Source: Candidatus Parcubacteria bacterium (GTDB lineage Bacteria; Patescibacteriota; Minisyncoccia; UBA6257; HR35). Taken from it: DNA of 64,000 bases. Positions 2 to 63,053 of the stretch are shown here, one piece after another. Each line of letters begins with the position of its first letter. Position 1 is the first letter of the stretch. Made by a program: the position numbers and the translations under genes. Where the stretch lies: NCBI GenBank assembly GCA_026004495.1, contig BPJG01000001.1:70470-134469 (forward strand). Reading direction: 5' to 3'. A model generated the notes under the pieces. It was not told the DNA's origin, ran no database searches, and saw only the letters and a list, made by a program, of their open reading frames with translations.

Positions 2-235
2 CTTCAAGGCTTAGCAGATGAAAGAAATGAATCAGTCAAAAAATTAATTAGTGAAGTAATTAGAAAATGTAAAGAAAAAGGAAAATATGTAGGAATTTGC
101 GGACAAGCACCAAGTGATTTTCCAGAAATTGTTGAATTATTGGTCAAAGAAGGAATTGAAAGTCTAAGTGTTAATAGCGATGTAGTGGTTAAAACGATTG
201 AAATGGTTAAAAAATTTGAAGATGAAAATAAATGA
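2..235 (+). CDS. PEP-utilising enzyme C-terminal domain (PEP synthase / pyruvate,phosphate dikinase family), 3' partial
   Basis: Absent from the ORF track because it has no start in the window. Frame 2 reads ...KCKEKGKYVGICGQAPSDFPEIVELLVKEGIESLSVNSDVVVKTIEMVKKFEDENK*. The GICGQ.PS.P...L...GI.S.SV region is typical of the C-terminal TIM-barrel of PpsA/PPDK. The TGA at 233-235 overlaps the eno start. Confidence 0.75.
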   Translation, partial: LQGLADERNESVKKLISEVIRKCKEKGKYVGICGQAPSDFPEIVELLVKEGIESLSVNSDVVVKTIEMVKKFEDENK

Positions 236-1502
236 TATAAAAGTAAATAAAATTTTAGACTCAAGAGGAGAATGGACAATTGATATTGAAATTGAAAGTG
301 AAGGAATAAAAGAAAAAGCCTCAATCCCTTCTGGAAAAAGTATTGGCTCTCATGAAGTTGTTTGTTTAGATTGTGAAAAAATTAAAAAGAACTTAGATGA
401 ATTGTTGAAAGATATAAAAAATAATGATTTTCAAAATCTAAAAGAATTAGATGAATTTTTAATTAAAAGAGCAGGGAAGAATAAAGAAAAATTAGGAGGT
501 AACTTTACTTTAGGAATTTCAATTAGTTTTGCTCGCGTTTTGGCTAAAAGCAAAAATTTGGAGTTGTTTGAATATTTAAAGAACGAATATGCTCTAATAA
601 TAGAAGATGAATTTAGACAAATACCAAGATTAATTTTAAATATTATTGGTGGTGGAGTACATTCTTTTAATAATTTAGATTTTCAGGAATATTGGTTGGT
701 GACGCAGAACTACGCTGAACTGACGCAGAACTACGCAGACAATAATAAAACGCAAACCAATGCGAACTATAAGCTAAATAACGCTAAATTTCAGGTGAAC
801 TTATCCGAAGGAGAAAATTATTATGAAACGCAAAGCGATAAGAACTTAATGCGACTCAAAGCAAATAAATATGAATTTCTTATTTTTTTAATCATAGAAA
901 TCATAAATATTATTAATCAACTTGAAAATAAACTACCTAAACCATTAGGAAGAAATGATGAAGGAGCATTTTGTACAAACTTTAGTGATGATTATGAACC
1001 ATTTTTATATTTAAAAGAAGTTAATAATTTTGAACTTGGAGCTGATATTGCCGCTAATCAAATAACAAAGGTAGTTAATTGGGAAAATGTTTATCGCAAA
1101 CTAAAAATTTTGGGTGTTAAATATTTAGAAGATCCTTATAGAGAAAATGAATTTGAAAAATTTGCTGAACTTCGAAAAGAAGGATTTAAAGTAATTGGCG
1201 ATGATTTAACAGTGACCAATATTGAAAGATTAAAAATTGCCTTAGATAAAAATTCTGTTGATGGTGTAATTGTTAAACCTAATCAAATTGGCACCATAAC
1301 TGAAGCATTTAATTTTGTTAAATTAGCCAAAACAAATAATTTATTTACAATTTTTTCTCATCGAAGTGGAGAAACTAATGATAATTGGATAATTGATTTA
1401 GGAATTGCTTTTGGAGCAGATTATTTTAAAATTGGTGTTCCTTTACAAGGCGAAAGAGTGGCAAAATATAATAGACTTTTAGAGATTTATGGTAAAATTT
1501 AA
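222..1502 (+). CDS. eno: Enolase (phosphopyruvate hydratase) carrying an in-frame repeat insertion
   Basis: N-terminus KILDSRGEWTIDIEIE...IPSGKSIGSHE. C-terminus EDPY...VIGDDLTVTN...VKPNQIGTITE...SHRSGETNDNWIIDL...GERVAKYNRLLEI. The track ORF starts at 198, but the ATG at 222 gives a typical enolase N-terminus and overlaps the upstream stop. Confidence 0.92.
   Translation: MKINDIKVNKILDSRGEWTIDIEIESEGIKEKASIPSGKSIGSHEVVCLDCEKIKKNLDELLKDIKNNDFQNLKELDEFLIKRAGKNKEKLGGNFTLGISISFARVLAKSKNLELFEYLKNEYALIIEDEFRQIPRLILNIIGGGVHSFNNLDFQEYWLVTQNYAELTQNYADNNKTQTNANYKLNNAKFQVNLSEGENYYETQSDKNLMRLKANKYEFLIFLIIEIINIINQLENKLPKPLGRNDEGAFCTNFSDDYEPFLYLKEVNNFELGADIAANQITKVVNWENVYRKLKILGVKYLEDPYRENEFEKFAELRKEGFKVIGDDLTVTNIERLKIALDKNSVDGVIVKPNQIGTITEAFNFVKLAKTNNLFTIFSHRSGETNDNWIIDLGIAFGADYFKIGVPLQGERVAKYNRLLEIYGKI
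701..862 (+). repeat. GC-richer repeat-arm insertion, in frame inside eno
   Basis: The DNA reads gacgcagaactacgctgaactgacgcagaactacgcagacaataataaaacgcaaaccaatgcgaactat... and translates TQNYAELTQNYADNNKTQTNANYK.... It sits after the conserved FQE(Y/F) enolase motif, where enolases normally continue directly. It shares a 40-50 nt core with 1965-2010 and 2551-2600. Confidence 0.7.
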
Positions 1503-1954: not shown

Positions 1955-2063
1955 ACGGTTATAGACTAACGCAGACAATATTAAAACGCAAACTAATGCA
2001 AGCTGATGCGGCTAATGAAGGTATTCGCAACGGTTCGCGTGAAAGTTCGCATAGGTTCGCGAC
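1955..2063. repeat. Intergenic copy of the repeat-arm family containing both orientations
   Basis: ctaacgcagacaatattaaaacgcaaactaatgcaagctgatgcgg is followed by four gttcgc words (ggtattcgcaacggttcgcgtgaaagttcgcataggttcgcgac). gttcgc is the reverse complement of the gcgaac word in the arms. Confidence 0.65.
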
Positions 2064-2072
2064 AAATAAAAA

Positions 2073-3941
2073 ATGAAGATATTAATTTTAGGTGGAGGAT
2101 TTGGAGGTACTTATACTTTAAAACATTTGCATAAGTTTTTTCATAATAAGAAGAAAGTAAAATTGGTATTGGTAAATAAAAAGAATTATTTTATTTTTAC
2201 GCCTTTGCTTCATGAAGTCGCTACTGGTGGAGTTTCAATCGATAATGCTTTAGAACCTATAAGAGAAATTATTAAATGTTGCGATTTTGATTTTATCCAT
2301 GGAGAAGTTGAAAAAATTGATTTAGAAAATAAAGTTGTTTATATAAATAAAGAAAGAGAAAATTATAATGTTGATTACGATTATTTAGTTATTGCTTTAG
2401 GTTCAAAAACAAATTATTATAATATTACAGGCGCTAAAGAATTTACCTTTTCTTTAAAAACAGTTGATGATGCCATAAGGCTGAAAAATAGATTTGTTCA
2501 TATGTTTGAATTAGCGAGTGTAGCGCAGACCTGCGCAGACTACACGCAGACTAACGCAGACAATATTAAGACGCAGACTGATGCGAACTACACGCAGGCT
2601 GATGCAGGCAATAATGTAGTGCAGACTAATGCAGAAAACAACGAGAATTTTCTTTATGAAGATTTAAGCTATAAAATTATAGGAATAGCTTATAAAATTA
2701 AAAAGAATTTAGGATTGGGACATAAAGAAAAAGTTTATACGAATTCCCTTGAACTTGAACTTAAAAAAGAAAATATCATTTATAAAAGAGAGGAAAAAAT
2801 CAGCGTGGTATATGATGGAAAAATAGTAGGAAACTATATACCAGATTTTGTAATAGAGGATAAAATTATTGTGGAATTAAAAACACTCCCCTTAATAGAT
2901 GAGAAGACAAAAAAGCAAATCTGGAATTATTTAAAGGGAACTAAATATAGACTTGCAATTTTGATTAATTTTGGCAAGAAAGATGTGGAAATATCTAGGA
3001 TAATTTATGATAAAGCAAGAAATTCTAATAGTCAGCAAGAGTCTGCGTCCAGTCAGAAGGTTGATAATAATGAAAGTCTGCAAAAGTCCGCGTCCAGTCT
3101 GCAAAAGTCTGAGTCTAATAAATATTTAACTTTTGTCATTGTCGGAGGTGGAGCAACTGGAGTTGAACTTGCTGGTGAAATGAGTGATTTGTTTTATAAA
3201 ACATTTAGTAAATTATATTCATCAGATTTAATTTCACAAGTTAAAATAATTCTAATCGAAAAAGGCAAAGAATTAATTCCTCAATTTTCTCCAAAATTAA
3301 GACAAAAAGCACTTGAAAGGTTAAAAAAATTAAAAGTTGATATTAGATTGGAAAGAGGAGTAATTGAAGTTGGTGAAGATTTTATTAAACTTGATGATGG
3401 TAATGTTATCGAAACAAAAACAGTTATTTGGGCAGCAGGAGTTGAAACTAATTTACCAGAAATTATTGGCAAGGTTGAAAAGGATAATAAAGGAAGATTA
3501 GTTGTAAATGAATATCTACAAGTAAAAAAGAAAATAGATATGTTAAGTCAGCAAGAATCTGCGTTAAGTCAGCAAGAGTCTGCGTACGATAATGTTTTTG
3601 CCATTGGTGATGTTTGTTGTTTTATTCAAGACCAAAAGCCTTTGCCACAATTAGCTCAAGTTGCAGTTAGACAAGTAAAAACAGTTTCTTTAAATATTAA
3701 AAATTCGATTGAAAATAAGACTTTACAAAAATTTGCTTACAAACATACTGGTGATTTAATTTCAGTTGGTAGATTTTATGCCCTAGGAGAAATTAAAGGA
3801 GTTGAATTTTCAGGTTTAATTAGTTGGTTTATTTGGAAAGGAGTTTATTTAAGCAAAATTATTTCTTTTCGAGATCAAATCAAAACATTTATTGATTGGC
3901 TTTTGAATTTATTTTTACCCAGAGATATTACTGAATTATAA
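2073..3941 (+). CDS. ndh: Type II NADH dehydrogenase (NDH-2, FAD-dependent pyridine nucleotide-disulfide oxidoreductase) with two in-frame insertions
   Basis: MKILILGGGFGGTY (first GxGxxG). FVIVGGGATGVELAGEM (second Rossmann motif). VFAIGDVC near the C-terminus. At 622 aa it is about 200 aa longer than expected because of the insertions at 2518-3120 and 3543-3584. Confidence 0.85.
   Translation: MKILILGGGFGGTYTLKHLHKFFHNKKKVKLVLVNKKNYFIFTPLLHEVATGGVSIDNALEPIREIIKCCDFDFIHGEVEKIDLENKVVYINKERENYNVDYDYLVIALGSKTNYYNITGAKEFTFSLKTVDDAIRLKNRFVHMFELASVAQTCADYTQTNADNIKTQTDANYTQADAGNNVVQTNAENNENFLYEDLSYKIIGIAYKIKKNLGLGHKEKVYTNSLELELKKENIIYKREEKISVVYDGKIVGNYIPDFVIEDKIIVELKTLPLIDEKTKKQIWNYLKGTKYRLAILINFGKKDVEISRIIYDKARNSNSQQESASSQKVDNNESLQKSASSLQKSESNKYLTFVIVGGGATGVELAGEMSDLFYKTFSKLYSSDLISQVKIILIEKGKELIPQFSPKLRQKALERLKKLKVDIRLERGVIEVGEDFIKLDDGNVIETKTVIWAAGVETNLPEIIGKVEKDNKGRLVVNEYLQVKKKIDMLSQQESALSQQESAYDNVFAIGDVCCFIQDQKPLPQLAQVAVRQVKTVSLNIKNSIENKTLQKFAYKHTGDLISVGRFYALGEIKGVEFSGLISWFIWKGVYLSKIISFRDQIKTFIDWLLNLFLPRDITEL
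2518..3120 (+). mobile_element. In-frame insertion cassette: 5' repeat arms, GxxExxY-family PD-(D/E)XK domain, then 3' inverted repeat arms
   Basis: The core is YEDLSYKIIGIAYKIKKNLGLGHKEKVYTNSLELELKKENIIYKREEKISVVYDGKIVGNYIPDFVIEDKIIVELKTLPLIDEKTKKQIWNYLKGTKYRLAILINFGKK, which is GxxExxY-like with the D...E.K nuclease motif. The 5' side carries repeated gcgcagac/acgcagac words (2521-2640). The 3' side carries gtctgcgt/gtctgca words (3030-3115), their reverse complement. The cassette lies between ...FELAS and KYLTFVIVGGG of NDH-2. Confidence 0.75.
3543..3584 (+). repeat. Solo tandem 21-nt repeat arms inserted in frame in ndh
   Basis: ttaagtcagcaagaatctgcg is followed by ttaagtcagcaagagtctgcg, translating LSQQESA LSQQESA. 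The word agtcagcaagagtctgcgt is identical to 3030-3048 in the large cassette. Confidence 0.8.
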
Positions 3942-3949
3942 TTAAATTA

Positions 3950-5386
3950 ATGGAGCCTCTTTATCTATTTAACACCCTAAGTCGAAAAAAAGAAAAATTT
4001 AAACCTTTGAAAGATAAGATAGTAACGATGTATAATTGTGGACCGACTGTTTATGAAAGACCACATATTGGTAATTTAAGAGCCTATATTTTTGCTGATA
4101 CCCTAAGAAGAACGCTTGAATACAATAGCTATAAGGTCAAACAGATTATAAATATTACTGATGTTGGGCATTTAACTTCTGATGCTGATACTGGTGAAGA
4201 TAAAATTGAAAAAACTGCTCGAAAAAAAAGAAAAACTGCCTGGGAAATCTCTCACTATTTTGAAAAACTTTTTAAGGAAGATATTAAAAAATTAAATATT
4301 AAAAATCCTTTTAAGTTTCCTCGAGCAACTCAACATATAAAAGAAATAATTGAGCTTATAAAGATTCTAGAAAAAAAAGGCTATACTTACAAAATTTCTG
4401 ATGGTATCTATTTTGATACTTCTAAATTTAAAAATTATGGTGAATTAGCTGGCTTAAAGAAAAAAAAATTCATTGCCGGTGCTAGGGTTGAAATAAATCC
4501 TGAAAAAATAAATCCAACTGATTTTGCTTTGTGGAAATTCTCGCCTAAAGATATTAAAAGACAAATGGAATGGAAAAGTCCGTGGGGTATCGGTTTTCCT
4601 GGTTGGCATATTGAATGTTCAGCAATGTCAATGAAATATTTAGGTAAAACAATTGATATTCATACTGGGGGTATAGATCATATTAATATTCATCATACAA
4701 ATGAAATTGCTCAATCAGAAGCAGCAACTGGTAAAAAATTTGTTAACTATTGGCTTCATGTAAATTTTTTAAAAGTTGAAGGAGAAAAAATGTCAAAAAG
4801 TTTAGGAAATATTGTTACCCTAGAAGATATTGAGAAAAAAGGTTTTCAACCGCTTGCTTTCAAATATTTAGTTTTAACCTCCCATTATCGTTCAGAAATG
4901 AATTTCACTTGGCAAGCAATGGAATCAGCTCAAAAAGCATATAATTTAATTTTAGAAACAATCTCCAGTTTTAATCTTTCTATTAATTTGTATAAATCAC
5001 TATCTATCAACAGACAACTTTCAATTCTACATAGCTCTGCATCTAGGGAAATATTAAATATTATTAATGATGATCTTGATACTCCTCGATTAATTGCTAA
5101 ATTATGGGAAGTTTTAAGACTAAATGAAAATTTAAAATTTAAAAAAATTTTTGTTTTAAAAGCTGATAAAATTTTAGGATTGGGATTCAAAGAATTTTTA
5201 GTAAAACAAAAGTTACCAGCCAAAATTAAAAATAAAGTATTATTGAGAGAAAAGCTGAGAAAAGAAGGGAAATGGCAAGAAGCTGATAAGATTAGAGAAA
5301 AAATATTAAAAGCTGGTTATAAAATTGAAGATACTAAACAAGGCCCAATTATTAAAAAAGTCGTTATTAAAAAATTAATAAAATAA
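3950..5386 (+). CDS. cysS: Cysteinyl-tRNA synthetase
   Basis: MYNCGPTVYERPHIGNLRAY (HIGH), GWHIECSAM, KMSKSLGN (KMSKS), DDLDTP. Confidence 0.92.
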   Translation: MEPLYLFNTLSRKKEKFKPLKDKIVTMYNCGPTVYERPHIGNLRAYIFADTLRRTLEYNSYKVKQIINITDVGHLTSDADTGEDKIEKTARKKRKTAWEISHYFEKLFKEDIKKLNIKNPFKFPRATQHIKEIIELIKILEKKGYTYKISDGIYFDTSKFKNYGELAGLKKKKFIAGARVEINPEKINPTDFALWKFSPKDIKRQMEWKSPWGIGFPGWHIECSAMSMKYLGKTIDIHTGGIDHINIHHTNEIAQSEAATGKKFVNYWLHVNFLKVEGEKMSKSLGNIVTLEDIEKKGFQPLAFKYLVLTSHYRSEMNFTWQAMESAQKAYNLILETISSFNLSINLYKSLSINRQLSILHSSASREILNIINDDLDTPRLIAKLWEVLRLNENLKFKKIFVLKADKILGLGFKEFLVKQKLPAKIKNKVLLREKLRKEGKWQEADKIREKILKAGYKIEDTKQGPIIKKVVIKKLIK

Positions 5387-5387
5387 A

Positions 5388-5912
5388 ATGAATAAAAATT
5401 TACAAATAACTTTGGGACTTTTGCGTCTTTCATTGGGCTGGATATTTTTTTGGTCATTTTTAGATAAACTTTTTGGTTTAGGTTTTTCTACTTGCAGAAA
5501 TAGAGAAATAAATATAGTAGATTATTTTTGCCGAGATGCATGGATAAATGGTGGCTCACCAACTTTTGGCTTTTTAAAATTTGCAGTAAAGGGACCTTTT
5601 GCTGAAATTTTTAGATCAATGGCAGGTAACCCAGTTGTTGATTGGCTATTTATGTTAGGACTTTTAGGAGTTGGCTTAGGATTAATGTTAGGAATTTTTA
5701 TTAAACTTTCAACATTCTTTGGCGGATTAATGCTTGTTTTAATATATATTGCTGGCTTTATTTTGCCGGAACATAATCCATTTTTAGATGAACATTTAGT
5801 TTATACAATTTTAATGGGCTTGCTTTATCTTTCAGATTCAGGTAATTATTTAGGCTTAGGTAATTGGTGGCAAAATACAAAATTAGTTCAAAAATATAAA
5901 ATTTTAAAATAA
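5388..5912 (+). CDS. DoxX-like polytopic membrane protein
   Basis: LGLLRLSLGWIFFWSFLDKLFG followed by several TM helices. The start is 1 nt after the cysS stop. Confidence 0.5.
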   Translation: MNKNLQITLGLLRLSLGWIFFWSFLDKLFGLGFSTCRNREINIVDYFCRDAWINGGSPTFGFLKFAVKGPFAEIFRSMAGNPVVDWLFMLGLLGVGLGLMLGIFIKLSTFFGGLMLVLIYIAGFILPEHNPFLDEHLVYTILMGLLYLSDSGNYLGLGNWWQNTKLVQKYKILK

Positions 5913-5931
5913 ATTTTATTACCTTATTTTT

Positions 5932-6510
5932 CTAATATTTTATATGAGGGAAATTTTCAATCCTGCCTAATATTCTAACTTTTAATTTTTTAACGCCCCA
6001 TTTTATAGCTTCATCTACGTTATCAAAATAAACATCAATCTTGTTTCCTTTAACTGCACTGCCAGTATCTAATGCTATGGCATAACCATAATCTGGAATT
6101 TCTAAAACAGTTCCTAATGGAATAATCTCAGGATCGACTGCAACAGTACCCTTTAATGCAGGTAACCCAGAATAAGTAATACCATAATCTTTTCTACCAG
6201 GCATCTTACCCGTAGACTCAGGCCCAGAGGTATAAGCAGTCGCTACTACTTCTAAGGTTTTTAAATATTCAATATTTTTTTGTGAATTTTCTATTATTTC
6301 TTCTAGATCTTTTTTAACTTTCTCATACATTAATTGTTTTTCTTTTAATTCTTTTTCTTTTTCTTCAATTTCTTGCCTAAGATTAGATATTTCTTTGTTA
6401 TCTTTTATAGTTTTTAAACCAAATAAAACAGCTAAAGTCATAAAAAAAGATTTCTTTAAAAAGTCTCTTCTAGAAATTTTTTTATCAAAAAATTTAGGAG
6501 TCTTTTCCAT
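5932..6510 (-). CDS. 3D-domain (RlpA/MltA-like barrel) cell-wall protein with N-terminal anchor and coiled coil
   Basis: VVATAYTSGPESTGKMPGRKDYGITYSGLPALKGTVAVDPEIIPLGTVLEIPDYGYAIALDTGSAVKGNKIDVYF matches the 3D-domain pattern. There is an N-terminal TM segment. Confidence 0.75.
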   Translation of the reverse strand: MEKTPKFFDKKISRRDFLKKSFFMTLAVLFGLKTIKDNKEISNLRQEIEEKEKELKEKQLMYEKVKKDLEEIIENSQKNIEYLKTLEVVATAYTSGPESTGKMPGRKDYGITYSGLPALKGTVAVDPEIIPLGTVLEIPDYGYAIALDTGSAVKGNKIDVYFDNVDEAIKWGVKKLKVRILGRIENFPHIKY

Positions 6511-6552: not shown

Positions 6553-7372
6553 ATGTCAAAGCTTAAAAAAAAGATTTTTCAAATTATTAAAAAAATTCCA
6601 TCTGGTCAATTTTTGACATATAAACAAGTTGCGATATTAGCTCATAATGAAAAAGCTTTTAGAGCGGTTGGCAATATTTTAAAATATAAGGCTAAATTAG
6701 GGAAACAATTTATAAATATTCCTTGTCATCGAGTAATTAAAGGTGATTATACTGTTGGTGGATACTTGGGTAGAAAAGATTTAAATTGGTTAAAAGCAGC
6801 TTTACTTTTAAGAGAAGGAGCAATCGGAGTTATTCCAACTGATACAATTTATGGCATTTGTACATCTGCTTTTAATAAAAAGTCTGTTGAAAAAATTTAT
6901 AAATTAAGAAAAAGAAATCCTAAAAAGCCTTGTATAATTTTGATTTCTAACTTAAACGATTTAAAGCTTTTTAAGGTTCAGCTTGAAAATTGGCAAAAAT
7001 ATATTTTAAAGAAAATTTGGCCAAGTAGAATAAGCGTCATTTTGTCTTGTAAATCGAAGAAATTTTCTTATCTTCATCGCGGAACAGAAACTTTAGCCCT
7101 TAGATTACCCAAAGATAAATTTATACTAAAAATTTTAAAAATTTCAGGACCATTAATTGCTCCATCAGCAAATTGGGAAGGGCATGAATCAGCAAAAACA
7201 ATAAATAAAGCAAAAAAAATATTTTAATAACCATGTATTTTATTTAGATAGAGGAAAACTAATTAGTGACCCCTCAAATTTAATCGATTTAACTCACAAA
7301 GAAATAAAAATCATAAGAAAGGGAGCTGATAATGATAAATTAGATAAATTTTTAAATTATAAATTAGTATAG
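6553..7372 (+). pseudogene. MGMT-like DNA-binding domain fused to TsaC/Sua5/YrdC threonylcarbamoyl-AMP synthase, interrupted by a frameshift in an A8 run
   Basis: The N-terminus has FLTYKQVA...IPCHRVI (the MGMT PCHRV motif). It continues GVIPTDTIYGICTSAFNKKSVEKIYKLRKRNPKKPCIIL (YrdC/Sua5). The ORF stops at 7227, but the next frame from 7220 continues YFNNHVFYLDRGKLISDPSNLIDLTHKEIKIIRKGADN...* to 7372, which is the expected PS.i.Dlt...ilR.G C-terminus. The shift lies in aaaaaaaa at 7212-7219. Confidence 0.7.
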
Positions 7373-8044
7373 ACAGAATAACCCTGGGTATCATTTCTAC
7401 ATAGACATACCTTAAAGTTTATATCAATCTGTGATATATATTTTTTAGGTTTTTTGTTTTTAAATCTTGGAATTATTTTAATTAAAAAAGTTAAAATATA
7501 AAAATTCATAATTTCATTAGATTATTAAAATTATATCTATCAACATTATTAGGTGATTTATTAGAAACGTAATATTTTAATAAACTTAGTAACTAAAATT
7601 ATAATAGTAAGCTGTTGGAAGCAGATTATAAAAATTTATTTTAATAAAGATAAAATGTTTTTTTATGTACTATTTATAATATGTATATAAAGAAAGTCAA
7701 AGATAATTTTAATCCCTCAAGTTTGAGAAAATAGAAATTAGCCCTTAATAAAAGCATAGAAAAAATAAAACCAGAACATAGATCTTTTTGACTATATTAG
7801 AACATTTAAAAATTACATCATTAAAAGTATAATTATCTTATAAAATTAACCTTTCTTTAGTAATTATTTGATAGTCTTAAAGCTTCTATTGTATTAGTTT
7901 TATATTTTTTTACTTTTTTTAATATAAGAAATATTAAAATATCATTAAAAAAGGGGAATTCATAAAAATGAAACCAAAAGATAAAAGTTAAAATAAAATC
8001 AGAATTTTAGTTCAATGAAAATTTATAATAAAAAAAATTAATTT

Positions 8045-30372: not shown

Positions 30373-30417
30373 ATTAGAAGAAATAGAGAGATTAGAAGAA
30401 ATAGAGAGATTAGAAAT
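30373..30417. repeat. 18-bp tandem repeat, 2.5 copies
   Basis: attagaagaaatagagag occurs twice, followed by attagaaat. Confidence 0.85.
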
Positions 30418-61256: not shown

Positions 61257-63053
61257 ATGAAAATTGATAAATTATATAAAATTCGTCATTCTCTAGCACA
61301 TCTTTTGGCAACTGCTATCCTAGAAATAGATCCTAAAGCAAAATTCGGTATTGGCCCAGTTACTGAAAATGGATTTTATTATGATTTTTTACTATCGAAA
61401 AAAATCGAGCAAAAAGATTTACCATTAATTGAAAACAAAATTAAAGAATTAATTAAAAAGAATATAAAATTTGAAAGAAAAAAAATAAGTTTAACTAAAG
61501 CTAAAAAATTTTTCAAAAATCTTAATCAACCATTTAAGTTAGAATTAATTAATGATTTACAAAAATATAGCACAACTGAATATGAAAAAATTTTAGATAT
61601 CAAAGACAAAAAAATAAAACCTAAAAAAATAAATTATGTAACTTTATATAAAACTTATAAATTTATAGATCTTTGTCGAGGTGGACACGTATCCAAGTCA
61701 TCAGAAATAAACCTTGAATCTTTTAAATTAACTAAAATAGCTGGAGCTCATTGGAGAGGAAACGAAAATAATCCAATGTTAACTAGGATCTATGGAGTTG
61801 CTTTTGAAACTAAAGAACAATTAGAAAGCTATCTTAAATGGGAAGAAGAAGTTCAAAAAAGGGATCATCGTATATTAGGTCAAGAATTAGAGTTATTTAC
61901 CGTTGATGAAAATGTAGGATCAGGTTTAATTTTATGGCTACCCAAAGGAGCAATAATTAGACAAACTATTCAAGAATTTATAATAGATATTTATAAAAAA
62001 AATAATTATCAATTAGTATTTACCCCTCATATTACTAAACAAAAATTATTTGAAATTTCAGGTCACCTTTCTTATTATCAAGAAAATATGTATTATCCTA
62101 TAAAAATTGAGGGAGAAAATTATTATCTTAAACCAATGAATTGTCCTTTTCATTTAACTATTTATAAACAAAAAACTAAAAGCTATCGTGATTTACCAAT
62201 TCGTTATGCTGAATTGGGAACTGTTTATCGTTACGAAAGATCAGGTACCCTTTCAGGTTTAACTCGAGTTAGAGGTTTTACCCAAGATGATGGTCATATA
62301 ATTTGCACCTTCAATCAGCTACCGGAAGAAATACATAATTGCTTAAATTTAGTTAAATTTATTTTAGAAAAATTTGGTTTTAAAGATTTTAAGGTCTTTT
62401 TAAGTATCTGGGATAAATCAAATAAGAAAAAATATTTAGGCACAAATAAAGAATGGCAATTTGCTATTGAAAGTTTAAAAAAATCGGTTGAAAAATTAAA
62501 TTGGCAATATGAAATAATGAAGGGAGAGGCAGCTTTTTATGGACCTAAAATTGATGTTGTTGTTAAAGATGCCCTCGGAAGAGATTGGCAAATTTCAACT
62601 ATTCAATTAGACTTTAACTTAACCAAAAAATTTGATTTAGCTTATATTGATAAAGATAATAAAACCAAGAAGCCTTATTTAATTCACCGAGCTTTATTAG
62701 GTTCAATTGAAAGATTTATTGGTTTATTAATAGAGCATTATGAAGGAAATTTACCCTTTTGGCTTTCGCCTATTCAAATTGCTATCATTCCCGTGAATAT
62801 AAATCATCTAAGTTACGCAGAAAAATTATTAGAATTATTAAAGGAAAAAAATTATCGTGTAAAAATATTAGAAGCAACAGAAAGTTTATCTAAAAGAATA
62901 CTTATTGCTGAAAAAGAAAAAATTCCCTATATGATTATAATCGGTGATAAAGAAATAAAAGAAAATAAAATATCTATTAGAAAACATAAGATAGGTAATA
63001 TTGGAACATTAAGTTTAAATAAATTTTTACAAATTATCAGTAAAGAATATTGA
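61257..63053 (+). CDS. thrS: Threonyl-tRNA synthetase (lacks the N-terminal TGS domain)
   Basis: HSLAHLLA (editing/second additional domain), CRGGH, and the class II motifs YLKPMNCPFH, GLTRVRGFTQDDGHI and FYGPKID. An anticodon-binding domain is present. Confidence 0.92.
   Translation: MKIDKLYKIRHSLAHLLATAILEIDPKAKFGIGPVTENGFYYDFLLSKKIEQKDLPLIENKIKELIKKNIKFERKKISLTKAKKFFKNLNQPFKLELINDLQKYSTTEYEKILDIKDKKIKPKKINYVTLYKTYKFIDLCRGGHVSKSSEINLESFKLTKIAGAHWRGNENNPMLTRIYGVAFETKEQLESYLKWEEEVQKRDHRILGQELELFTVDENVGSGLILWLPKGAIIRQTIQEFIIDIYKKNNYQLVFTPHITKQKLFEISGHLSYYQENMYYPIKIEGENYYLKPMNCPFHLTIYKQKTKSYRDLPIRYAELGTVYRYERSGTLSGLTRVRGFTQDDGHIICTFNQLPEEIHNCLNLVKFILEKFGFKDFKVFLSIWDKSNKKKYLGTNKEWQFAIESLKKSVEKLNWQYEIMKGEAAFYGPKIDVVVKDALGRDWQISTIQLDFNLTKKFDLAYIDKDNKTKKPYLIHRALLGSIERFIGLLIEHYEGNLPFWLSPIQIAIIPVNINHLSYAEKLLELLKEKNYRVKILEATESLSKRILIAEKEKIPYMIIIGDKEIKENKISIRKHKIGNIGTLSLNKFLQIISKEY

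Follow-up and report, generated by a model that had tools for sequence, protein, structure and literature searches.

How a tandem repeat can come to lie in frame within a housekeeping gene is the question raised by a 64-kb stretch of DNA (the whole of which we call the window; G+C content 24%) from a metagenome-assembled genome (MAG) of a Candidatus Parcubacteria bacterium. Here ndh (2073..3941, plus strand; product KatS3mg094_069) encodes a type II NADH dehydrogenase (NDH-2) of 622 aa as one uninterrupted open reading frame (ORF), and at 3543-3584 this frame runs through two tandem 21-nt units that read LSQQESA twice just ahead of the motif NVFAIGD, as a sequence-only reading of the window had described. 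We think it probable that this 42-bp block is the orphan arm of a selfish DNA element that inserts in frame, and that it is translated as a harmless loop.

The repeat block in ndh

The host is an NDH-2 by its Pfam matches (Pyr_redox_2, 7e-42; NDH2_C, 8e-9), its two Rossmann GxGxxG motifs, its GD motif, its NDH2 C-terminal domain and its homology to solved NDH-2 structures. The two tandem 21-mers, at 3543-3563 (ttaagtcagcaagaatctgcg) and 3564-3584 (ttaagtcagcaagagtctgcg), are one base apart, and Tandem Repeats Finder (TRF) reports the block as period 21 with 2.1 copies, 95% matches and a score of 81. With up to three mismatches allowed, the 21-mer occurs three times in the window (3027, 3543 and 3564) against 0.00 expected from 100 shuffles, and the third copy falls in the 3' arm of a nuclease-bearing cassette that also lies within ndh; the word that the earlier reading had noticed in both places is a 19-mer (agtcagcaagagtctgcgt) identical between the cassette arm (3030-3048) and the block (3567-3585). 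Read on the minus strand, the block (3543..3584) consists of four heptamer units, CGCAGACTCT, TGCTGACTTAA, CGCAGATTCT and TGCTGAC, spaced 10-11-10, and its plus-strand translation is LSQQESALSQQESA. Units 2 and 4 are of a GCTGAC variant that is also found in the enolase gene of the window and in L001, L037 and L051 (loci from other genomes are given L numbers), and the heptamer GTCTGCG/CGCAGAC itself occurs nine times in the window against 0.26 expected, with all nine occurrences between 700 and 3600.

Directly ahead of the block stand four extra inserted codons (AAA ATA GAT ATG; 3531..3542, plus strand), which with the module make a net insertion of 54 nt whose boundary is uncertain by about 3 nt, and the AAG ahead of these codons replaces an ancestral AAT. 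The block immediately precedes Y505 of Y505-DNVFAIGD, in which G512 and D513 are invariant in 120 orthologs, and the segment from Q483 to F509 has 27 residues in the window protein against nine (QVKNYxNVF) in 115 of the 120; the only long insertions there are those of the window protein, P0002 (27 residues) and P0004 (54 residues). The solved NDH-2 structures 9mqy and 9pxk show an alignment gap at the same position. Because neither the solved structures nor 115 of the 120 orthologs have the segment, comparison of sequences confirms the block as a genuine in-frame insertion, one part of the 54-nt insertion, and the thought that its peptide might be ordinary ancestral sequence of the enzyme falls away.

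In an AlphaFold2 (AF2) model the NDH-2 core is confident, and residues 491-500, between strands 483-486 and 504-510, have a predicted local distance difference test (pLDDT) value of 53. The block appears as the translated part of an 18-residue surface loop that is most likely inert in NDH-2, and its presence would be functionally neutral. In the full-length model (622 aa) the cassette region lies below pLDDT 50 because the alignment is without depth there, and we therefore make no claim on how the nuclease domain packs against the enzyme. As nucleic acid, the block forms no hairpin and has no self-complementarity (DNA fold z 0.14), an Rfam scan of the window returned tRNAs only, with no structured RNA at the block, and neither a promoter-like nor a terminator-like signal was found at the block.

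The module family and its nuclease

The 38-nt core of the block, four CGCAGAC-like heptamers spaced 10-11-10, is found again in the cassette arms of the window and in L001, L002 (twice, at ndh hotspot 2 and in truB), L005 (the HR35 genome, at ndh hotspot 1) and L008, where it lies on both sides of rbfA and adjoins a free-standing GxxExxY gene. The inverted four-unit arrays of L008 (2103-2145 and 2459-2501) enclose the whole of rbfA, and the downstream array doubles as the upstream arm of the GxxExxY gene at 2501-2956. Because its four-heptamer 10-11-10 architecture is the same as elsewhere, we read the block as one complete canonical module and not a fragment, and the earlier description of "arm units" gives way to that of a complete 42-nt module, antisense and in the usual frame.

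An nhmmer profile built from 24 modules of other organisms, with the window and its close relatives left out, matches the block at 3586-3545 on the minus strand (E 2.2e-6, model positions 7-48 of 54). Throughout the 64-kb window the matches with E < 1 are the block, the cassette arms, an arm in the enolase gene and an intergenic copy, with none past 3600; two further matches are at chance level (E 2.3 within the 5' arm and E 16 at 62814). With the orthologs, this profile match bears out the earlier proposal that the block is an in-frame insertion of the cassette-arm repeat family.

A pattern scan of species-representative genomes found the four-unit 10-11-10 form in Saccharibacteria, Pacebacteria and other MAGs of the candidate phyla radiation (CPR). 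In Desulfobacterales and others the arrays have three units spaced 10-10, and many of them form inverted pairs with 100-400 nt between the partners (L009-L127); in L077 a GxxExxY gene lies between two arms. Because the CGCAGAC three-unit arrays occur in Desulfobacterales and other non-CPR genomes, the CGCAGAC module family reaches well beyond CPR bacteria. High-GC actinobacterial matches to the pattern, spaced 11-11-11, were set aside as probably unrelated tandem repeats. Separately, the Fpg ORF of a related genome of 28% G+C was seen to contain a module of four units spaced 10-11-10 in another dialect, with ACGGAT as its unit (L208, 11581-11618).

Arrays and nuclease genes were found together from either direction of search. 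A GxxExxY homolog is encoded in 8 of the first 119 pattern-selected loci and stands directly beside the array in 7 of those 8. For the reciprocal test, 80 metagenomic loci were picked by GxxExxY homology only: their upstream flanks are enriched 15-38 fold in ACGCAGA, CGCAGAT, CACAGAT and CACGAAT, and their downstream flanks in the reverse complements. A phased array of at least three units lies upstream in 42 of 73 GxxExxY loci, downstream and inverted in 42 of 73, and on both sides in 30 of 73, compared with 36 of 1033 control segments (3.5%). The heptamer dialect differs among these loci and usually matches across the two sides of one gene. The module family flanks genes of GxxExxY (PD-(D/E)XK) nucleases as inverted arrays. 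The GxxExxY/PDDEXK_3 family is listed as being of unknown function (PMC3424549), and our search of the literature on GxxExxY, PF13366, CPR in-frame insertions and the miniature inverted-repeat transposable elements, or MITEs, of Patescibacteria found no description of such arrays or of in-frame cassettes.

Within genes the modules keep to particular frames. Of the 24 foreign modules, 23 fall within open frames (293-990 aa long), and sense copies share one frame in 14 of 15 cases (x-Q-T-x-A-D-x-T-Q-T-x-A-D) and antisense copies one frame in 8 of 8 (S-x-R-x-S-A-x-S-x-R-x-S-A), counts whose independence is overstated since some foreign copies overlap or are duplicates. The SQQESA-L-SQQESA of the block fits the antisense template S-x-(R/Q)-x-S-A twice. 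A 21-nt unit is seven codons long, so its gain or loss never shifts the frame, and the heptamer has no stop codon in any of the six frames. The host genes, identified by eye, include UvrA, UvrB, GAPDH, GatB, Sua5 and TruB. In L002 the truB module (3911-3948; TQTHADWTQTYADLN) replaces about 8 host residues of the ortholog in L005/HR35 (5135-6040), so that module gain can accompany loss of host sequence. In the Sua5/YrdC-type gene of L001 (about 6560-7553), set against window positions 6553-7227, we also observed an in-frame, two-armed insertion (AELTQNSQNKAENFLRKSAYELNPRESALS...) within the N-terminal DNA_binding_1 domain, absent from the window ortholog, and another module at 7398-7435.

Complete cassettes are likewise found inside genes, and all nine of the closest relatives of the window nuclease are embedded in frame in host genes. 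The LepA carriers (L128, L131 and L134) share one site, between GITIK and DTPGH, and the RecG carriers (L129, L130, L132 and L133) another, between DEQHRFGV and MTATPIPRT, while L135 lies in a glycosyltransferase and L136 in a transketolase. Between L128 and L131 the nuclease is 80% identical and the host LepA 45%, and in the other carrier pairs the nuclease is conserved about as well as the host or better, with one pair 3 points lower; as far as such identities go, conservation of nuclease over host is the pattern expected of a homing-type element. Neither the LepA and RecG carriers nor ndh has a Hint/intein domain (Pfam returned host domains and PDDEXK_3) or conserved junction residues. A GxxExxY cassette embedded in an 862-aa ORF was also seen in L051. 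All these carriers are CPR-like contigs from metagenomes.

The cassette of the window is of this kind. Its 5' arm (2521..2607, plus strand) consists of two sense modules that read AQTCADYTQTNADNIKTQTDANYTQADA (nhmmer E 4.5e-12 for 2521-2566 and 4.7e-4 for 2568-2607); a GxxExxY/PDDEXK_3 nuclease domain follows in frame with ndh (2646..3026, plus strand, ndh residues 197-311; Pfam 1.6e-32, TIGR04256 2.1e-33); and the 3' arm (3026..3111, minus strand), two antisense modules that read SQQESASSQK...SLQKSASSLQKSES (E 3.7e-7 for 3111-3073 and 7.8e-4 for 3056-3026), pairs with the 5' arm in the RNA fold of 2505-3130 (z -4.5). In the nuclease the PD..ExK motif still has its invariant D, E and K (alignment A2), and the AF2 model of the domain (pLDDT 96) is a minimal PD-(D/E)XK fold, with which Foldseek returned weak generic PD-(D/E)XK matches (TM-score about 0.5) that do not distinguish a DNA from an RNA substrate; a sequence search of the PDB found no relative of it. 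One gene carries both a full element and a solo arm, as the sequence-only reading had recognised. This domain, the sole GxxExxY domain in the window, ends 517 nt upstream of the block and has its own two 3' modules, and the block directly adjoins neither a GxxExxY gene nor an inverted partner module. We class the block as an orphan because it has no adjoining nuclease gene, no partner module and no hairpin.

The remaining copies in the window lie upstream of ndh. Inside the enolase gene (198..1502), a sense arm at 698..775 on the plus strand (TQNYAELTQNYADNNKTQTNANY; nhmmer E 6.9e-8 for 698-745) shares 76% identity with the 5' arm in ndh over 72 nt and opens a 57-aa in-frame insertion (698-880), the enolase having 434 aa against 377 aa in L006. 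This insertion was considered as a truncated cassette with a nuclease stub, the collinear alignment looking suggestive at first, and was rejected as such: over the roughly 100 nt past the arm the similarity to the cassette fails to reach significance, being equalled by 20 of 500 shuffles and exceeded by other pieces of the window. Between DoxX and ndh lies a degenerate two-armed copy (1963..2066, no strand assigned) with a marginal nhmmer match (E 0.16), whose sense arm is 88% identical to 2548-2589 and whose downstream, antisense arm is in the GGTTCGCG dialect; this copy forms no stable hairpin (z +0.84), its arms failing to pair because the downstream arm is of a different heptamer dialect. 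The family thus has five sites in the window (one in enolase, one intergenic and three in ndh), all of them in its first 3.6 kb, and the other 60 kb has none. Elsewhere in the window, a perfect 18-nt tandem repeat at 30373-30415 (ATTAGAAGAAATAGAGAG; 2.4 copies, TRF score 86) is unrelated in sequence to the module family.

History of the site and competing explanations

In relatives the block's site is found in three states. It is empty in L005 and L006, where it reads GTA AAA AAT TAT. The window and L002 have the net 54 additional nt, with AAG AAA ATA GAT ATG followed by the 42-nt block, and L001 has 135 additional nt at the same junction, beginning AAG AAA GTA AAT, an ORF-less insertion that folds as a hairpin (-30 kcal/mol, z -6.6) of sense units (CGCAGAACT) and antisense units (AGTTCTGCG) and is 81 nt (27 codons) longer than that of the window. 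The junction AAG AAA RTA RAT is common to the window, L002 and L001, the window and L001 forms have alternating CGCAGAC/GCTGAC units in common, and among the 120 orthologs the site is occupied only in one small clade. Because of the codon-multiple size gap, the common junction, the unit pattern and the small-clade occupancy, we favour a single insertion in an ancestor, after which the sense arm would have been lost by deletion.

L002 is about 11% diverged from the window at the DNA level, is free of the cassette and carries the same 54-nt insertion, and because of this we take the block to be old and not the debris of the present cassette. The earlier reading had offered a footprint or a solo arm; what stands of it is the orphan arm, probably that of a two-armed element given the L001 hairpin at the same junction, and what goes, on the evidence of L002, is the footprint of the cassette now in the gene. 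Since both 21-nt units start with TTA in the window and both with TCA in L002, the comparison indicates that the unit was probably homogenised or re-duplicated, and the counterparts in L001 differ considerably from each other. The L002-type protein is encoded on 12 contigs and is the sole sequence in its 90% cluster.

Other ndh sites also vary in state. At the site of the window cassette (hotspot 3), more distant orthologs have ORF-less two-armed elements of the same CGCAGAC dialect, and one site can therefore be empty, two-armed or ORF-bearing across lineages. At hotspots 1-3 the NDH-2 orthologs P0033-P0064 (alignment A3) carry other low-complexity in-frame insertion families, for example YPNNLPNKLPESSDRI...FGQNSGNTFGPHSGN and NLPGYQPDMSPGYKPDKSG, which may be further repeat dialects.

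Put together, the explanation that we favour would run as follows. The basic unit is a 42-nt module in which two 7-codon units hold four CGCAGAC-type heptamers, spaced at a helical turn; small GxxExxY nuclease genes are flanked by modules in inverted sets, and ORF-less two-armed hairpins or single modules occur besides. Such elements land in housekeeping genes of CPR/Patescibacteria, which apparently stay intact, and would survive only where the insertion is a multiple of three, free of stops and read as a short hydrophilic peptide, in the tolerated frames xQTxADxTQTxAD (sense) and SxRxSAxSxRxSA (antisense). One of them would have entered the loop before the FAD-binding GD strand in the ancestor of the window organism, L002 and L001, of which L001 would keep both arms and the lineage of the window and L002 would be left with the antisense module only. 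Its two 21-nt units may later have been homogenised or re-duplicated, and the block would now be merely translated in an 18-residue surface loop, of no use to the enzyme.

Several observations weigh against this history. In the ndh tree L005/HR35, whose site is empty and intact, groups with the window and L002 and leaves L001 outside (quartet bootstrap 98-100%), so that either a clean loss or recombination with an empty allele in HR35 would be needed, or else two gains at the site. Hotspot 1 has the opposite pattern, being occupied in HR35 and L001 only, and there must therefore be homoplasy at one of the two sites. The empty-site sequence is not obtained from the filled one by any single deletion, and neither a target-site duplication nor a consistent element end was found at ndh hotspots 1, 2 and 4 or in truB; upstream of the block, a possible second, degenerate copy of the KNYDNV codons was weighed as a target duplication and dropped as unconvincing. 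A nuclease cassette occupies this exact site in 0 of 120 ndh orthologs, and the binding, cleavage or mobilisation of arrays by the GxxExxY nuclease is a putative step. Solo modules are the commonest in-gene form, and modules may insert alone. The model gives no account of why the copies in the window are all crowded into 3.6 kb. As to the flank co-conversion that homing predicts, sliding-window identities around the insertion gave no local signal.

Some of these points lend themselves to another account, which we consider unlikely: that copying acts on the solo module itself (42 nt with a short tail), through a GxxExxY nuclease working in trans, for instance, or through templated repair, that the block was never two-armed and that L001 gained a second, sense array later. 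Partnerless ORF-less modules are indeed common in genes (L002 hotspot 2, L005 hotspot 1, UvrA, UvrB, GAPDH, GatB and TruB), the two solo insertions in ndh are both of net +54 nt, and the copies in the window are clustered as if new ones arose beside old. However, the junction AAG AAA RTA RAT of L001 lies outside its sense arm, so the second array would have had to insert precisely where the junction meets the older module; for the insertion of solo modules neither a mechanism nor a target duplication is visible; and the TruB module swaps out about 8 host residues instead of being a pure addition.

We think it very improbable that the block is a retained functional site, whether an array to which the embedded nuclease domain or some other protein binds, with an effect on ndh expression or DNA topology, or an adaptive loop of NDH-2. 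The spacing of heptamers at one helical turn is typical of protein-binding arrays, and the block of L002 matches that of the window at 39 of 42 nt and is identical to that of L003 (two contigs from different samples were compared). Yet, at 93%, the block is not distinctly better conserved than the gene around it (88-93%), HR35, L006 and 115 of 120 orthologs function without the block, the scan for promoter-like or terminator-like signals at the block was negative, and AF2 confidence for the loop is low. An ordinary in-situ tandem duplication or low-complexity loop, unrelated to any mobile family, is scarcely credible: although the tandem units are near-identical, TRF sees a simple period-21 repeat and the unit has signs of local duplication or homogenisation, the orthologs have no single-copy precursor, 19 nt are identical to the cassette arm, the block has a significant full-length match to a module profile from other phyla, and the same 10-11-10 architecture and reading frame recur in unrelated genes.

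Wider reading and comparison with known systems

The ancestral insertion of a two-armed element and loss of its sense arm may be one instance of something broader, a reading that we find evenly poised between belief and doubt. GxxExxY proteins would be the nucleases of an undescribed class of mobile element that ends in inverted, helically phased heptamer arrays, and its CPR branch would consist of non-splicing in-frame "homing cassettes" in essential genes (LepA, RecG, NDH-2 and others); the 21-nt periodicity and the stop-free heptamer would be adaptations to life within ORFs, and solo modules would be footprints or trans-mobilised offspring that form a layer of selfish peptides, like that of Rickettsia palindromic elements (RPEs), across CPR proteomes. 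The block suggests what the GxxExxY/PDDEXK_3 family may do and which DNA site may be cognate to it, and it shows CPR housekeeping proteins to be carriers of many selfish in-frame insertions by which alignments, protein-family models and phylogenies are inflated and distorted.

RPEs are reportedly present in unrelated housekeeping genes, in preferred frames and as short conserved peptides compatible with the host fold (Ogata and colleagues are said to have described this in 2000). The block resembles them in being inserted in frame in a housekeeping ORF with the host fold kept, and in-frame insertion of selfish repeats into genes is described for RPEs (PMC10969869). It differs in other respects: an RPE is a palindrome of about 100-150 bp, has no known associated enzyme and is not known outside Rickettsia, whereas the block is 42-54 nt long, non-palindromic, of another sequence family and in a host of another phylum, and its module family in CPR occurs solo, as inverted pairs or flanking a PD-(D/E)XK nuclease ORF.

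Systems of repetitive extragenic palindromic (REP) sequences, their paired form REPIN and the REP-associated tyrosine transposase (RAYT) are similar in having an enzyme gene between inverted short repeats, with the repeat also scattered as hairpin doublets and singlets. RAYT, however, is an HUH tyrosine transposase and REPs are extragenic imperfect palindromes, whereas here a GxxExxY PD-(D/E)XK protein goes with direct heptamer arrays and most CPR copies are in frame within ORFs; no RAYT/HUH gene was seen in the loci examined.

Short words over-represented in coding regions, in tolerated frames and often as inverted pairs, are also known as the DNA uptake sequences (DUS) of Neisseria and the uptake signal sequences (USS) of Pasteurellaceae, and the modules are like them in all these respects. 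Uptake sequences, however, come about through substitution, stand singly and are distributed evenly along the genome, whereas the four-unit arrays here have truly been inserted and are bunched together (5 sites in 3.6 kb and none in the other 60 kb). MITEs such as Correia, ERIC and BOX are short non-autonomous repeats, sometimes intragenic, with in-frame fusions possible (PMC10969869). The modules share with them their shortness, their sometimes intragenic position and their in-frame fusions, but the block has no terminal inverted repeats and instead an internal phased heptamer array, and the three filled/empty comparisons in ndh and one in truB gave no consistent target duplication.

In its cassette form the system comes near to inteins and homing endonucleases: it is in frame at identical sites of conserved genes (LepA, RecG), near nucleotide-binding motifs, it is patchy among relatives, its nuclease is more similar than its host, and ORF-less remnants and empty sites occur at the same position, as in a homing cycle. 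The combination of one site in diverged hosts with a nuclease more conserved than they are has been shown for the LepA and RecG cassettes, not for the site of the block. Unlike inteins, the cassettes have no Hint domain, no conserved splice-junction residues (their junctions are variable) and no ribozyme, and the insert appears to stay in the protein; the nuclease is also organised unlike that of any classical homing family. If confirmed, the cassette would be an intein- or homing-like element without splicing, and would add to the ways in which selfish nucleases can live in essential genes.

Because each of the compared systems (RPE, REPIN-RAYT and intein/homing) differs from this one in at least one of the defining features that we tested, we regard the system as a new variant and as a member of none of them. 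It would be a second independent case, after the RPEs of Rickettsia, of repeats that survive within ORFs, and one in which a candidate enzyme makes the mechanism testable.

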